Of a DNA stretch of 64,000 bases, positions 36,719-61,712 are shown one piece after another. Origin of the DNA: Candidatus Poribacteria bacterium (lineage in GTDB: Bacteria > Poribacteria > WGA-4E > PCPOR2b). Where the stretch lies: assembly GCA_965208675.1 (NCBI GenBank), contig OZ242351.1, positions 4,224,001-4,288,000 on the forward strand, given 5' to 3'. The notes under the pieces were generated by a model. The model did not search any database. It saw nothing but the letters and a program-made list of their open reading frames with translations, and had not been told where the DNA came from. Each line of letters starts with the position of its first letter. The stretch's first letter is position 1. Both the position numbers and the translations under genes were made by a program.

Positions 36719-37717
36719 ATGTTAATACGGATAACGCCTATGTTTGCTCTTTCGGTTGTCGGTTTAGTCCTAATTAGCGTCATGTTTGTAGCGGGCGTCG
36801 AAGCACAAGCGCCGGCCGATTCGACAATCGCGATTACGACGAACGGCGCGGATTCCAACATCTGGCTAATTGACGCGGATGGCGCGAATGAGCGAGGGCT
36901 TCTACATGCTGGCGGACAACAACCCGTTGGTTTGGTATGGTCTCCGGACGGCACGAAGTTAGCGTTCCATAACAAAATTGGAGATAACGTCGATATTTAC
37001 CTGGTGGGTGCGAATGGGAAGAATTTGAAGCGTCTCACCGATCATGAGGCGGAAGATAGCAATCCCGATTGGCATCCAAGTGGTCAAAAACTAGCGTTCC
37101 AATCCATGCGGGACGGGAATTTTGAAATCTATACAATGACAGCGGCGGGGCAAGTCATTGAGAATCTTACGAACGATCCCGGTAACGACATTACGCCTGC
37201 ATGGTCACCAGATGCACGAAAGATAGCCTTTTCCGGCAAGCGGGGCAAAACCTTGGGAGATGTCTTTGTGATGGATTCAGATGGCGCCAACCCTCAGAAT
37301 ATTACAAATAACCGCTCCAAGGATTTAGATCCCCAGTGGGCTCCAGATGGAAAACAATTCATCTTTACGACGGAACGGAATGGAGCTGGTGATATCTTCC
37401 TTATGGATATCAACGGGGAAAATCAGAGACAGATTAATTTTGAGCCGAATCCCGGGTTTGTTGGTATCGACGGGGCTCCCGTGTGGTCTCCGGACGGCGG
37501 GGAGGTAGCTTACGAAGTCTGTGGAGCCGGGGTTTGCAAGATTATTGTGATTGATCCTGATAAGCCCAAAAATCAGCTTATCCTACCGCAACCGGGTGGA
37601 TTCAATCGTTCTCCTGCTTGGTTTGATCCGGAATTTGTGGTGGAATTCTCTGTCTCCCCTGCTGGCAAACGTCCGATGACCTGGGGTTGGCTGAAGCAAG
37701 TGAGACATAAGCAGTAA
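36719..37717 (+). CDS. Secreted TolB-like (PD40/WD40) beta-propeller with the C-terminal TW-x-x-K tail
   Basis: Signal peptide; repeated P.WSPDG motifs; ends 'SVSPAGKRPMTWGWLKQVRHKQ'. Confidence 0.88.
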   Translation: MLIRITPMFALSVVGLVLISVMFVAGVEAQAPADSTIAITTNGADSNIWLIDADGANERGLLHAGGQQPVGLVWSPDGTKLAFHNKIGDNVDIYLVGANGKNLKRLTDHEAEDSNPDWHPSGQKLAFQSMRDGNFEIYTMTAAGQVIENLTNDPGNDITPAWSPDARKIAFSGKRGKTLGDVFVMDSDGANPQNITNNRSKDLDPQWAPDGKQFIFTTERNGAGDIFLMDINGENQRQINFEPNPGFVGIDGAPVWSPDGGEVAYEVCGAGVCKIIVIDPDKPKNQLILPQPGGFNRSPAWFDPEFVVEFSVSPAGKRPMTWGWLKQVRHKQ

Positions 37718-56513: not shown

Positions 56514-57308
56514 ATGAAAGTTTCAATAACGTTTTTATCTGTGATGTTCGGTCTCGTTGTGTTCGGATTGATGTTCACTGTGGATAGCGATGCCAAGATT
56601 GAATCCTCCGGTGCATGGCTTTTGGACGAAGAAAGCGGAGGTAAGATTGAAGACGCTTCCGGTAACGGCATTGACGGAGAAATTGAGGGCGACGCCAAGT
56701 TCCCTAAGGGTCAGTTCGGCAACGCGATGGAATTTAACGGCGAAAACACGCTCGTTCTCTTCGAAAATGAAGATCCGAACCACGCATTTGCCCTTCATCG
56801 TGAAAAGGATGTTACATTCATGTTTTGGGTGCAGCCTTTTGATGTCACCCATGACGGCATTTTCTGGACACGAGGCAATCCCAAGGGTGATGATGCAGAT
56901 AGATTTAACATCTATTCTGGTCCCGGTGAAACCTTCGGTTTCGATTACCGGGAAGCCGGCGGGAATATCCATGGCCTCATCCAAGGCATCGAGCTTCCCA
57001 ACAAAAAATGGACCCACCTTGCCGTAACGAGAGAAGGTAATACTTACAATCTTTTCCACAACGGCAAACAGGTCTCGCAGGCGAAAGATCCCAGTCCAAA
57101 ACTGCCTGAGACTGCAAGCTGGATGATGTCTGGAAGACCCGGTTTCATTTTTAACGGAATGTTGGATGAAGTTGCGTTTTTCGACGCCGTCCTGAGTAAA
57201 AACGACATTACCAACATCATGGATAATGGACTCGAAATAGCCGCACTTTCCGTCGAGCCTTCAGCCAAGCTCGCCACAGCGTGGGCGCGGATAAAAACCA
57301 GCCAATAA
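56514..57308 (+). CDS. Secreted LamG/concanavalin A-like protein 1 with C-terminal tail
   Basis: Signal peptide; 'WLLDE', 'D.SGNG', 'WTHLA', 'F.G.LDEV'; ends SVEPSAKLATAWARIKTSQ. Confidence 0.9.
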   Translation: MKVSITFLSVMFGLVVFGLMFTVDSDAKIESSGAWLLDEESGGKIEDASGNGIDGEIEGDAKFPKGQFGNAMEFNGENTLVLFENEDPNHAFALHREKDVTFMFWVQPFDVTHDGIFWTRGNPKGDDADRFNIYSGPGETFGFDYREAGGNIHGLIQGIELPNKKWTHLAVTREGNTYNLFHNGKQVSQAKDPSPKLPETASWMMSGRPGFIFNGMLDEVAFFDAVLSKNDITNIMDNGLEIAALSVEPSAKLATAWARIKTSQ

Positions 57309-57384
57309 TTTCGATTTTGAGGTTTTGGGTAAAATTTGTTTCGCGCAAATTTCCCAAACCGAAATTTTAAGCAGTTGAAACCAC

Positions 57385-57423
57385 AAGCGTGCTTCTAGTT
57401 ATTGAATTGCTAGAAGCACGCTT
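57385..57423. terminator. 14-bp perfect stem-loop after LamG gene 1
   Basis: AAGCGTGCTTCTAG-N11-CTAGAAGCACGCTT; no long U-tract. Confidence 0.5.
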
Positions 57424-57509
57424 CAAACTCTCGCCTTGGGCTTTTCTTGTACGGCAGGTTTTTTACACACCTTAATGATATCCTCGGTTAGCCACGAAGG
57501 GTTTATCTA

Positions 57510-58286
57510 ATGGCTATGAGTAAGCGTGTTTTATTGGGAGTAAGCGTTCTCGCTCTCGGATTAATCGTTGGATCGCAGTGCGCCGCGAGGATTGATCCGA
57601 ACACTATAGTAGGGATTTGGCTGCTTGATGAAGGTGAGGCGGATGATGCGTCCGAAAATGAACGGCACGGCAGACTTACCGGCAAACCCAAAGTGGTCGA
57701 AGGGAAGTTTGGGACGGCGCTGGATTTTTCCGGGGAAGGCGAATCCGTCAAGATTGCAGACTTAGCCGAAATCCTGCCCACGAAAGTAGTGACAATTACA
57801 CTTTGGGTCAAAATTGGAGACCACGGTAAAAATCCGGATGTATTCAGCCTGAACCCGTGGGAGCCGGGCCGTATCGCGGTTGCCATTTGGGACAAGCAAA
57901 TATTCTGGCATTTTGGCGTTGGGGGGAAATGGATAGTTATCCGCTTCATTGACGAGGAATGGGTCGGCCAATGGAAGCATTGGACATTCATCAATAACGC
58001 TGAAGATAACTTCATGGCGGGATACATTGACGGTGAAAAAGCAGCGAGGATTGGGGGCATATCCGGCGTGTACGAACAACGCGGCGGCGACTTTCACATC
58101 GGCGGACGGCCAGAAGCCTCCTTTTCGGGCGCGATTGACGATTTCGGGATTTTTAATACGACTTTGTCCGAGGATGACATAAAAATGATAGTTGACAGGG
58201 GACTTGAGCGCGCAGCTCTATTTCAGGGTGTGAACAGCGCGGCTAAATTGGCTGCGATTTGGGGGGGACTTAAGGCGTCACAATAG
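57510..58286 (+). CDS. Secreted LamG protein 2 with C-terminal tail
   Basis: 'GIWLLDEG', 'GKFGTALDF', 'FSGAIDD'; ends GVNSAAKLAAIWGGLKASQ. Confidence 0.9.
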   Translation: MAMSKRVLLGVSVLALGLIVGSQCAARIDPNTIVGIWLLDEGEADDASENERHGRLTGKPKVVEGKFGTALDFSGEGESVKIADLAEILPTKVVTITLWVKIGDHGKNPDVFSLNPWEPGRIAVAIWDKQIFWHFGVGGKWIVIRFIDEEWVGQWKHWTFINNAEDNFMAGYIDGEKAARIGGISGVYEQRGGDFHIGGRPEASFSGAIDDFGIFNTTLSEDDIKMIVDRGLERAALFQGVNSAAKLAAIWGGLKASQ

Positions 58287-58305
58287 CACGCTAGGAAGGA
58301 TATCT

Positions 58306-59115
58306 ATGAGTGTGAAAGGAAAATTGCTGGCGGCATTTACAATTGCACTGTTAATAAATGCTTGTGTGTGGGTGTTTTCACCTGTTGCGGAAGCGATTAT
58401 CAAACTCGAATCGCTTGTGGTTGCGTTGCCGTTTGATGAGGGAAACGGTAACACAGCGGAGGATCTCTCGCCGCACGGGAATGATGGTCAACTCGTGGAG
58501 GGCGCCAAATGGGGAGACGGAAAGTTTGGGAAATGCCTCCGCGTAAAGGAGCCCGCCCGCGCCGAAGTTGAGAATAACGAAAGTTTCTGGTTACACGAAA
58601 AGGATTTCACCCTAGCCATTACGATTAATTTTTCGAAGGAACCCGGTACCACCGGTTTAATTGCGCACGATAACGGACTTGGCGCAGAGGCTTTTAAGGC
58701 TGTATGGGAATTATTGGGCGGAGTGTTTACGTTCCACATAAATAACGGTGGGAACAACGTCGCTTGGATTCGATCGGATTTTCTGGGTACACCCGAAATC
58801 AATCGATGGTATAGCGTGGTATTAGTTAAGAAAGGGATTACGTACACGCATTATCTTGACGGTGAAGTGTTCGGTGTGGTGGAGGAAAAGGAACCGATTC
58901 CCCGCGAAATCGATAATCCGCTGACGATTGGCATGGCGGAACACACTTTCTATTTCCCCGGCCTTATTGACGAAGTCGTTGTCGGGCACACGCCGTGGGT
59001 GCAGCAAGATGTGCAACGGTATTTTGAAAGAGGTATCCAAGGTGTGTTGGCGGTTGAGCCCAGTGATAAGCTGGCAAGCACATGGGGCGGCCTCAAATCG
59101 AACCGCAACTATTAG
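58306..59115 (+). CDS. Secreted LamG protein 3 with C-terminal tail
   Basis: 'FDEGNG..D.S..GNDG', 'GKFG', 'GLIDEV'; ends AVEPSDKLASTWGGLKSNRNY. Confidence 0.9.
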   Translation: MSVKGKLLAAFTIALLINACVWVFSPVAEAIIKLESLVVALPFDEGNGNTAEDLSPHGNDGQLVEGAKWGDGKFGKCLRVKEPARAEVENNESFWLHEKDFTLAITINFSKEPGTTGLIAHDNGLGAEAFKAVWELLGGVFTFHINNGGNNVAWIRSDFLGTPEINRWYSVVLVKKGITYTHYLDGEVFGVVEEKEPIPREIDNPLTIGMAEHTFYFPGLIDEVVVGHTPWVQQDVQRYFERGIQGVLAVEPSDKLASTWGGLKSNRNY

Positions 59116-59353
59116 GGCGTGTTGACATAGCGAACCGCACAATTCTAATAGAGAACTGAAAGGGGGTGTTGCGGGGACGCGATCCATATACCCTAGGGTA
59201 ATGTGAAAACGACCTAGGGGATGTTCAAAGCGAAATGTGTCGCTGGATATAAATTTCCGGATTTTACGCCGGATTGCTGATGTTTTTAAATACAGGGGGG
59301 CGGTGCGTTGCACAGCTCCTCATTCAAAAATTTAAATGGAGGGACTCACTTTT

Positions 59354-60151
59354 ATGATTACTAGAATTGCAACATTAGGTTTAGCCTTTTTTATGGCATT
59401 TGGGCTGATGATTGTTGGTCAGAGCGATGCCGGGCTTGTTGGCGCATGGCTGTTCGATGAAGGTTCGGGCGATGTAGCCGGAGACGCTAGCGGCTACGGT
59501 AATGACGGTATGTTAATGAATGGCGCCGGTTGGACGGCTGGTGTAAGAGGGTCTGCAGTTTCATTTGTGGGCGGCGGCGATCCGCAATTCATCCTATTTA
59601 ACGCGGACGAAGATCCGGCAAAAGCCTTCATTCTGCATAGTGATTCAGATGTAAGCATGGTACTGTGGGTTCGTCCTACCGAAGGCGGGCACGGCTCATG
59701 GATGTGGTCTAGAGGCGATGACGCGGATGCCGGTCGATTTAATGTCCACAACGGACCTGGCGACATTTTCAACTTCGACTACAGGGAAGACGCGGACAAG
59801 AGCCCAGATCCGCCGCACGGCGGGGCAGCCGGGATCCCGACTCCAATAGGAGAGTGGACTCATGTTGCAATAACGCGAGTCGGAAATGAATACACGTTCT
59901 GGGGTAACGGCAATATGGTGGAAACCTGGGTGGATGAGAATCCGGTACTTCCAAGCGCCAACGGTTGGATAGTCGGGTCGCCGCGCGGATGCTGTCCGCT
60001 TAAAGCCGACATTGATGAACTTGGGTTCTTTAACATTGCGTTGTCCGGTGATCAGATTAGCGCCGTCATGGGCGGTGTTGAGGCACTTGGCGCGGTTGAA
60101 TCGTCAGGCAAACTCGCCACGACGTGGGCAGACATTAAGGATTTCGACTAA
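59354..60151 (+). CDS. Secreted LamG protein 4 with C-terminal tail
   Basis: ATG 59354 with RBS GGAGG; 'LVGAWLFDEGSG', 'WTHVA'; ends AVESSGKLATTWADIKDFD. Confidence 0.9.
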   Translation: MITRIATLGLAFFMAFGLMIVGQSDAGLVGAWLFDEGSGDVAGDASGYGNDGMLMNGAGWTAGVRGSAVSFVGGGDPQFILFNADEDPAKAFILHSDSDVSMVLWVRPTEGGHGSWMWSRGDDADAGRFNVHNGPGDIFNFDYREDADKSPDPPHGGAAGIPTPIGEWTHVAITRVGNEYTFWGNGNMVETWVDENPVLPSANGWIVGSPRGCCPLKADIDELGFFNIALSGDQISAVMGGVEALGAVESSGKLATTWADIKDFD

Positions 60152-60515
60152 TTCCCGCGTCTAGTCCAATAATTTCCATTCCATTACCGGCTGGAAGTTC
60201 AATGTTTTGTCACGATGGTGTTTCGGAAACCTGACAGCTTAGCGGAAGTTAAGGTTTAAATTTGGAGATTTTCCGAGGTTTAAAGTCGTATGATTCAAGT
60301 TTTTCCGTAGCGTCTCGTTTGCGGAACATCATTGATTGAGCCTTAGGCAAAAATATCAATGACCTAGGGCGGTGTCATAGCGGATGCATTTCGCTGAAAT
60401 TTTGTGTCTGTTAACTATCAAAATAATAACGGGACGTGCGTTGCACAGTTGTAGCAATGTATTTGGATAGTGTGCAATTGCGTCCCAAATTTGTTTTATG
60501 GAGGAAATCAGTTTA

Positions 60516-61304
60516 ATGATTACCAGAATCGCAACATTAGGTTTAGCGTTTTTTATGGCGTTTGGGCTGATGATTGTTGGTCAGAGCGATGCCGGGCTTG
60601 TTGGCGCATGGCTGTTCGATGAAGGCTCGGGCGACGTTGCTAAAGGAATAGTTGGTAGTGATGGCATGTTAATGAATGGCGCCGGTTGGACCGATGGCGT
60701 AAGAGGGTCTGCAATCTCATTTCATGATCCAGATTCCCAACATGCTCTATTCAACGCCGACGAGGATCCGGCAGGCGCATTTATTCTGCACGGCGATTCA
60801 GATGCAACGCTTGTATTGTGGGTACGCTCTGTTGAACCTCTTAGACACGGCTCGTGGGTGTGGACACGAGGCGATGACGCGGACGCCGGTCGATTTAATA
60901 TTCACAACGGTGACGGTACCGTATTCAGCTTCGACTATAGAGAAGACGATGGTACGCACCACCCTACGGACTGGGGCGTATTTAATGTGACCCTTACCAT
61001 AGGCGAGTGGACTCACGTCGCATTGACACGAGTTGGAAATGAATACACGCTCTACGGAAACGGCGAACAAACGGCGACGTGGGTAGACGAAAATCCAATG
61101 CTTCCAACCGCCAACGGTTGGATACTCGGGTCACCGCGGGGGTGCTGTCCTCTGAACGGTGATGTTGACGAACTTGGATTCTTCGATATCGCGTTGACCC
61201 AAGATCAGATTAACATGGTAATGGGCGGCGTAGAAGCGCTTGGTGCGGTTGAATCGTCGGGCAAACTCGCCACGACATGGGCAAACATTAAAGGCCGCGA
61301 CTAA
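60516..61304 (+). CDS. Secreted LamG protein 5, close paralog of protein 4
   Basis: First ~42 aa identical to protein 4; ends AVESSGKLATTWANIKGRD. Confidence 0.9.
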   Translation: MITRIATLGLAFFMAFGLMIVGQSDAGLVGAWLFDEGSGDVAKGIVGSDGMLMNGAGWTDGVRGSAISFHDPDSQHALFNADEDPAGAFILHGDSDATLVLWVRSVEPLRHGSWVWTRGDDADAGRFNIHNGDGTVFSFDYREDDGTHHPTDWGVFNVTLTIGEWTHVALTRVGNEYTLYGNGEQTATWVDENPMLPTANGWILGSPRGCCPLNGDVDELGFFDIALTQDQINMVMGGVEALGAVESSGKLATTWANIKGRD

Positions 61305-61712
61305 ATCCCGCGTCATGTTCAATACATTCCATTCGACAGCCTTTTGAGGGGGCAACTGTGTTGCCGCAATAGAATGTTTCGGAAGGCTGATGACCTAATG
61401 GAATGAAACAACTTAATTACTTCTAATTCCAACTTTTATGGTTGGATGATTCATACTTAAATGCGGCGTGGCGCGTTGAGTGAAAACGGATGCCATAACT
61501 CAATGCGCCACCCGTATTTTCATGGATTTTCCCCCGACTCTGATTAAAATCCCTGCGCAACTCCCTGTCCTGCTTGAAAAATCGCGTACGCTCCCCTTCC
61601 GCTTTTCCACTCCATTTCTAATTCCCCAATCTGTGGTATTGAAAAATCAGATATGTTTCGCCGTGCGTAATTTTAGTCAGCGCAGACGAGAGGGTTGTAT
61701 CGGGTTAAACCG

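Follow-up and report, generated by a model that had tools for sequence, protein, structure and literature searches.

Why should five lectin-like proteins and an unrelated beta-propeller, all encoded within a single stretch of poribacterial DNA, end in the same short sequence? The stretch (hereafter the window) covers 64,000 nucleotides, positions 4,224,001 to 4,288,000 of contig OZ242351.1 from a Candidatus Poribacteria bacterium whose genome is 96% complete, with 4259 called genes. We conclude that this C-terminal tail is probably an undescribed sorting tag, because it sits in the slot usually occupied by the signal of the secretion system known as type IX (T9SS) and has been met only in bacteria whose version of that system is pared down. 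The original prediction, made from the letters of the window, had placed the tail on five LamG proteins and one TolB-like propeller, and all six copies are present where it put them. The five LamG genes lie in a row on the forward strand. Protein 1 (LamG/ConA-like, 264 aa, 56514..57308) has a signal peptide, a PF13385 match and a 17-residue TWG tail at residues 245-261 (57246..57296, matrix score 42.8). It is followed by protein 2 (258 aa, 57510..58286; tail at residues 239-255, 58224..58274, score 29.2), protein 3 (269 aa, 58306..59115; tail at residues 248-264, 59047..59097, where V250 and W260 are invariant among 48 aligned homologues), protein 4 (271 aa, 59336..60151; tail at residues 252-268, 60089..60139, score 40.9) and protein 5 (268 aa, 60498..61304; tail at residues 249-265, 61242..61292, score 42.2). 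The propeller (332 aa, 36719..37717, forward strand) likewise has a signal peptide, and a tail at residues 310-326 (37646..37696, score 49.0). Between 3 and 6 residues follow the last K of the tail (3, 3, 5, 3 and 3 in LamG proteins 1 to 5, 6 in the propeller). Pfam recognized PF13385 in all five LamG proteins, the match stopping 11-20 residues short of the tail, and PD40 in the propeller. The remaining called genes of at least 70 aa in the window were all negative on the tail matrix, as predicted, and the non-lipoprotein signal peptides claimed for the carriers were supported by a crude hydrophobicity heuristic of our own rather than by SignalP. LamG genes 4 and 5 arose by recent tandem duplication (DNA identity 78-92%), so the six tails cannot be counted as independent instances.

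Across the whole genome, the regular expression of the original prediction gave 94 matches in 94,654 stop-to-stop frames, 91 of which lie no more than 10 aa from the stop, far beyond chance. An iterated matrix identified 137 tails, to which a gapped hidden Markov model added a handful, with the consensus [LF][AS]V[SED]PxGKL[AT]TTW[GA]x[LI]K followed by 1-10 residues; W is present in 137/137, partly by construction of the seed. Once stripped of their tails, the bodies fell by BLAST into 13 clusters (77, 40, 5, 3, 3 and 2 members plus seven singletons, two of them fragments), whose representatives matched LamG, PD40 propeller, 3-keto-disaccharide hydrolase, cohesin, HmuY, DUF3108-like, Big_5 or Temptin_C families in Pfam, or had no match. 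The proposal of a modular tag carried by unrelated secreted folds is therefore borne out at the protein level. A signal-peptide-like N-terminus was called by the same heuristic in 121 of 133 carriers, most exceptions being near the threshold, and the tail occurs in only 4 of the 2020 proteins that lack an N-terminal h-region and in 2 of 110 lipobox proteins. One carrier outside the window has a lipobox-like LSGC; a Big_5 protein (genome 3647347-3648897) combines a lipobox-like signal with the tail, and a tailed HmuY-family protein is encoded at genome 2583153-2583995. The tail was found in 121/121 sampled genomes of the phylum, with 14 to at least 65 matches each, and a search of 1.84 billion representative sequences returned 271 hits at E <= 0.001; among the best 150 hits, which include a few unrelated repeats, 142 had their top window 12 aa or less from the end. 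Apparent tandem internal repeats of the tail in database hits turned out to be unrelated repeats or odd chimeric sequences.

These counts bear on whether the tail is a signal at all. It could instead be a structural part that closes the LamG fold, an element conserved as DNA or a side effect of the multiplication of paralogues, and it is in keeping with this that the two largest body clusters hold 117 of the 137 carriers and that an AlphaFold2 (AF2) run on LamG plus tail without an alignment gave no usable model (predicted local distance difference test, pLDDT, 35). The tail, however, sits on unrelated folds, and tail-less LamG and propeller homologues exist in the same genome. Conservation is moreover exerted at the protein level: third-position information is 0.27 bits as against 0.84 and 1.10, synonymous codons vary freely, and in 35 distant LamG rows identity reaches 0.59 in the tail versus 0.25 in the body. 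We consider the absence of any signal very improbable, and the free use of synonymous codons rules out a DNA repeat or mobile element as the origin of the tail.

The most informative copies are those that do not end their protein. Among 22 matrix matches lying more than 12 aa from the stop, 17 stand at a distance of exactly 96 aa from the end and a further one is truncated by a stop; these 18 all continue directly into ALLQN[YF]PNPFNPET, and the domain that follows is a type-A T9SS C-terminal domain (CTD) according to TIGR04183, which has 54 matches in the genome (54-67 CTD proteins in all). The expectation that the tail would never be internal thus fails, as a version with W changed mostly to L or F forms a homologous junction directly before 22 of 52 type-A CTDs, 17 of them in one supported WD40 clade and five scattered, with G-x-[IV]-K kept ahead of the CTD on several unrelated bodies. 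W is replaced in every pre-CTD copy (by L in 18, F in 3, M in 1 and I in 1). In 20 of 21 of these copies [GA]V sits 23 aa ahead of YPNP, which we take to be motif B. The PorU cleavage motif is described as X/(GSA)(VLI) in the available part of PMC4560394, and the part of PMC11969387 that deals with long CTDs places 19-30 aa between the cleavage motif and motif B; the tail therefore appears to open with a PorU motif at the expected distance. Among the terminal tails, G, S or A precedes the V in 121 of 137 against a background of 21%, the V itself being part of the seed regular expression, and these 121 match the PorU motif in sequence at the junction. Modelled by AF2, the CTD is a beta-sandwich matching FlgD, PorU (6za2), PorZ (5m11), RgpB-CTD (7pq4) and substrates of the SprA-PorV complex, streptococcal C5a peptidase domains ranking first among the structural matches.

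Tail and CTD also replace one another. An LPVEL-type FN3 domain that ends large proteins in other Poribacteria is followed by the long tail in 8/8 loci, and in other genomes the same type of domain runs directly into a CTD in 20/30 loci; cohesin ends in the tail or, in 3 homologues, in a CTD. The tail hence occupies the CTD slot after FN3 or cohesin. Two further arrangements were seen around CTDs: in the WD40 tail-plus-CTD gene at genome 2851873-2854128 a TAG early in the CTD leaves the tail and a stub, and a second recurring module, probably a helical hairpin following dockerin, stands ahead of about ten CTDs (genome 3803369-3810710 and others).

Does the host possess the machinery to which such a signal would be addressed? 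Judged from family models, Poribacteria appear to encode a reduced T9SS. The host genome has PorU over the NF033707 cut-off (427 vs 420; genome 4188812-4195087), another PorU-like protein, some 2100 aa long and below that cut-off (3854386-3860736), 16 PorV-family matches (about 15 genes), 8 of them over the cut-off, and a divergent SprA-like protein of 2178 aa (3218107-3224643; 160 bits vs a cut-off of 200), a SprA-like hit being present in 61/61 genomes of the phylum. As for the motor and ring of the canonical system, GldN was not found in the host genome with positive controls that gave hits, nor was GldM, for which no positive control did, the search being confined to these two out of GldK, GldL, GldM and GldN. 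The portions available of a 2014 study (PMC3909097) describe orphan Por-secretion CTDs (TIGR04183) on poribacterial WD40 proteins and report neither structural Por genes nor a short tail; those WD40 proteins are the ones that carry the pre-CTD copy, and PorU, PorV-family and SprA-like proteins are what we add here. A preprint (10.1101/031039), in its accessible part, found T9SS only in Bacteroidetes. Several PorV-family genes adjoin large CTD proteins (genome 3045565-3049736, 2042315-2044682, 1471073-1478653, 4336919-4340138 and 4401421-4411900), which by analogy with type B CTDs suggests dedicated barrel-cargo pairs. A TonB-like gene, seen by eye, lies directly upstream of a PorV-family barrel (2390239-2392034) and is a possible energiser for a motor-less system.

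The tail is not restricted to Poribacteria. A short-form pattern, TWGxIKA[LIVMF][YF], matched at least 123 stretches; among the 125 matches listed (two counted twice), 108 end no more than 6 aa from the stop and the others listed fall, by eye, mostly inside IF-2-like and other unrelated proteins. We searched 44 genomes chosen by hand from these matches, 38 with a C-terminal match and 6 with an internal one. In 20 of the 38 (Eisenbacteria, Krumholzibacteria, Latescibacterota and other bins) there are 8-66 tail copies, on CHRD, beta-helix, LTD or LamG bodies or on bodies of no known family. Only one or two copies were seen in the remaining 18, which belong to Ignavibacteria, Rhodothermia, Calditrichia, KSB1, Neomarinimicrobiota, Zixiibacteriota and other groups. 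In the first five of these groups named the short form TWGxIKAxF marks a single-copy secreted FN3-like protein of about 135 aa, ending TWGSIKAMFR, which matched no Pfam or NCBIfam family model, gave nothing significant in a PDB sequence search and only unnamed clusters in the ESM Atlas, and has 4397 homologues at E <= 0.001, some of which may lack the tail. The neighbours of its gene vary (by eye, MATE-like, Maf-like and SpoIID-like genes). In Zixiibacteriota and similar bins the tail sits on a different small body, whose gene is flanked, as judged by eye, by a rex-like gene on one side and an anti-sigma-factor pair on the other and is single-copy in the one genome checked. In 54 closely related rows of the single-copy family G, S or A occurs in 46 and V or I in 43 ahead of TWG; as the search pattern left those positions unspecified, this support for the cleavage dipeptide is free of pattern choice. 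The LPVEL-type FN3 domain bridges the short and long tail spacings. The mature N-terminus of the small protein (G/S-A/V) was considered as a PorU acceptor and dropped, being equal to the first FN3 strand.

Co-occurrence also links the tail to secretion. Of the 38 genomes whose tail is C-terminal, 37 had SprA over its cut-off, as against 0 of the 6 with an internal match; a C25 peptidase was found in 38/38 and 2/6, respectively. A sample of 151 genomes from the Roseithermus phylum contained 54 with the tail, 120 with SprA and 36 with GldN: the tail occurs in 54 of the 120 SprA-positive genomes, in 0 of the 31 without SprA and in 0 of the 36 with GldN, three of the 54 tail hits being weak (E > 0.001) and tail position being judged from frame length and model coverage. 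GldN was likewise found in 0 of 48 tail-bearing genomes, and was detected in 2/2 positive controls. In phylogenetic profiling, as suggested with the original prediction, the distribution of the tail thus tracks SprA (37/38 vs 0/6; 54/120 vs 0/31). Together with the pre-CTD copy (22/52) and the PorU motif at the start of the tail, this contradicts the view that the tail is unrelated to the T9SS.

On balance we lean, by a small measure, towards the tail being a short, CTD-free sorting tag of a reduced SprA-PorV-PorU system that works without PorKLMN. The tag would begin with a cleavage motif of PorU type, [AGS]-V, and continue with its second part, a short W-G-x-[IL]-K segment that is probably helical. 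A carrier would be exported by Sec into the periplasm, in line with its heuristic signal peptide; a component of the translocon or of the attachment complex would recognise the W segment where it otherwise reads a folded CTD; and the protein would then pass the outer membrane via SprA. That PorU cuts just ahead of [AGS]-V, sheds the tail of about 20 residues and attaches or releases the cargo is suggested by motif and position, and we give this step somewhat less than even weight. Under such a scheme the tag would be borne by tens to more than a hundred binding-type proteins in Poribacteria, Eisenbacteria, Krumholzibacteria and Latescibacterota, while Ignavibacteria, Rhodothermia, Calditrichia, KSB1 and others would retain it on a single small, conserved protein. 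The carriers may plausibly display a lectin repertoire at the surface. More tentatively, the tail might be the peptide export-and-sortase signal of an older, motor-less T9SS spread over several phyla, where it would replace the folded CTD, the single-copy FN3-tail protein being an unrecognised working part or core substrate that was lost where PorKLMN is present.

Several observations weigh against a T9SS sorting tag. In what is available of PMC11285876 and PMC11969387, a folded CTD with indispensable C-terminal strands and loop is required for known T9SS export, and the TWG tail has no folded CTD and no such strands or loop. The poribacterial SprA homologue stays under the family cut-off in all 61 genomes, and in searches whose positives gave hits, the host genome yielded neither PorZ nor the plug. 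A junction like the tail is missing from 30 of the 52 CTD proteins, and (G/S/A)V is a weak motif of two residues whose V was fixed by the seed. The original prediction called for a dedicated machine, and none was found when it was sought: a dedicated second sortase is rejected, since at E <= 1e-25 just one C25 match is present in 13 of 54 tail genomes, and no tail-specific PorV clade appeared in a weakly resolved FastTree phylogeny of 120 domains from 7 genomes with and 4 without the tail, from which weak hits and three G151 hits over the cut-off were left out. Co-occurrence follows lineage, in genomes that are incomplete and kin that are not independent, and the exclusion from GldN-positive genomes may reflect a single loss. 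Finally, 30 SprA-positive, GldN-negative genomes gave no tail hit; a fuller search recovered the small protein in two, and the 28 of 84 that still lack a tail protein indicate that a reduced system can do without it.

The composition of the tail suggests another function, that of an uncleaved envelope anchor, in which the W/I/L face and the flanking lysines would bind the membrane surface or an anionic envelope polymer. Carriers without a CTD would then remain periplasmic, and tail-plus-CTD proteins would be cut between the two and use the same anchor after export. The mean net charge from the tail to the protein end is +2.5, and G-x-[IV]-K is retained before the CTD on several unrelated bodies. 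The original prediction had called the tail amphipathic, which holds modestly on the Fauchere-Pliska scale (helical moment 0.38 in Poribacteria vs a shuffle mean of 0.31 and maximum of 0.35) and strongly for the tails of other phyla (0.52 vs 0.30), and does not hold on the Eisenberg scale, where the poribacterial moment is no higher than that of shuffles (0.26 vs 0.29). MinD and FtsA end in membrane-targeting helices that are short, basic and hydrophobic-faced, and which are cytoplasmic and protein-specific. The short form resembles them in these three traits and in its place at the very C-terminus; the tail differs in being extracytoplasmic, fixed in sequence and only modestly amphipathic in Poribacteria. 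The invariant W and a core fixed across phyla would exceed the needs of a generic lipid-binding helix, the constant loss of W in pre-CTD copies is odd for a retained anchor, and an anchor leaves the tie to SprA and the cleavage-like dipeptide unexplained. We regard this function, the main rival to the sorting tag, as unlikely.

The fixed W would suit a protein pocket, which raises a further possibility, that the tail is a docking peptide for a soluble CTD-bearing carrier or scaffold in the manner of dockerin and cohesin, the tail proteins being co-exported or assembled at the surface rather than being T9SS substrates themselves. Docking would account for T9SS dependence without a CTD, and besides its 54-67 CTD proteins the genome has cohesin/dockerin proteins that bear CTDs. 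In the AF2 model of tail plus CTD, however, no packing between the two is seen (residues 1-33 have pLDDT < 50, from only 22 aligned rows), and no conserved neighbour of the single-copy gene hints at a partner, so that we hold docking to be distinctly improbable.

Under the favoured reading, that of a T9SS sorting tag, the tail resembles the type A CTD (TIGR04183/PF18962) in being a signal at the C-terminus of variously folded proteins exported by Sec, in starting with a (G/S/A)(V/L/I) motif, in taking the same slot after FN3 or cohesin (with copies directly before 22 CTDs), and in occurring in hosts with PorU, PorV-family and SprA or SprA-like proteins, the poribacterial SprA-like one scoring below its cut-off. 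It nevertheless falls outside the type A family because it fails on fold and motifs, with about 17-25 residues, no beta-sandwich, no motifs B, D or E and an invariant W, and it was not found in GldN genomes. TIGR04183 and PF18962 gave no hit on the six window proteins and their tails, matching only the domain behind the pre-CTD copies. A precedent for shrinking T9SS signals is offered by the short CTDs of Prevotella intermedia, which the part consulted of PMC11969387 describes as 43-55 aa with three beta-strands and motifs B, D and E, modelled as binding PorV like long CTDs; on the favoured reading both are minimised signals keeping the cleavage motif, whereas the tail, at 17 aa plus 1-10 residues, keeps the junction only and has no such strands. 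As to other sorting systems, the signals of LPXTG/sortase, PEP-CTERM/exosortase and GlyGly-CTERM/rhombosortase are tripartite, with a transmembrane helix after the motif. The tail shares with them a short motif close to where unrelated secreted proteins end, a basic end and many copies per genome, and differs, as originally proposed, in having no transmembrane helix: just 3 of 136 carriers exceed a 17-residue Kyte-Doolittle mean of 1.6 within the last 45 aa. No existing Pfam or NCBIfam model matched the tail, on whole proteins or bare tails, which agrees with its being undescribed, although HMMER filters drop weak short matches and this is not proof of absence. The ESM Atlas returned for the tail alone only unnamed clusters under 0.9, and no description was found in the literature, with subscription journals thinly covered and supplements outside the search.

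The usual description, to our knowledge, limits the T9SS to Bacteroidota and relatives. It is also generally presented as PorKLMN-driven and dependent on folded CTDs. A tag of about 20 residues travelling with SprA, PorV and PorU and not with GldN would, if true, be a new class of T9SS signal and would bear on how a reduced T9SS works. It would also bear on the poribacterial export route that PMC3909097, in the portions available, left open. In this sponge symbiont the carriers make up about 3% of called genes (137/4259), mostly lectin-like proteins and propeller binders, and the tag would allow envelope proteomes to be predicted in uncultured phyla. A single-copy carrier in the genome of Roseithermus sacchariphilus, a cultured species, makes a bench test feasible.

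Some smaller observations concern the LamG locus. A homologue is annotated as 'LamG domain-containing protein' [Candidatus Poribacteria bacterium]. A scan for promoters and terminators gave no signal clearly over shuffles. Contigs from three sponge metatranscriptome runs of one study overlap parts of all five LamG genes, mostly 90-95% alike; they derive from relatives and are no proof of transcription. The duplicated unit containing LamG genes 4 and 5 lies at window positions 59336-61403, includes the 3' flank and has a spacing of about 1155 nt. Elsewhere in the genome, a 1649-aa RHS-repeat and LamG protein (2459956-2464905) ends in a partial tail, with the W segment present and the V-x-P part missing.

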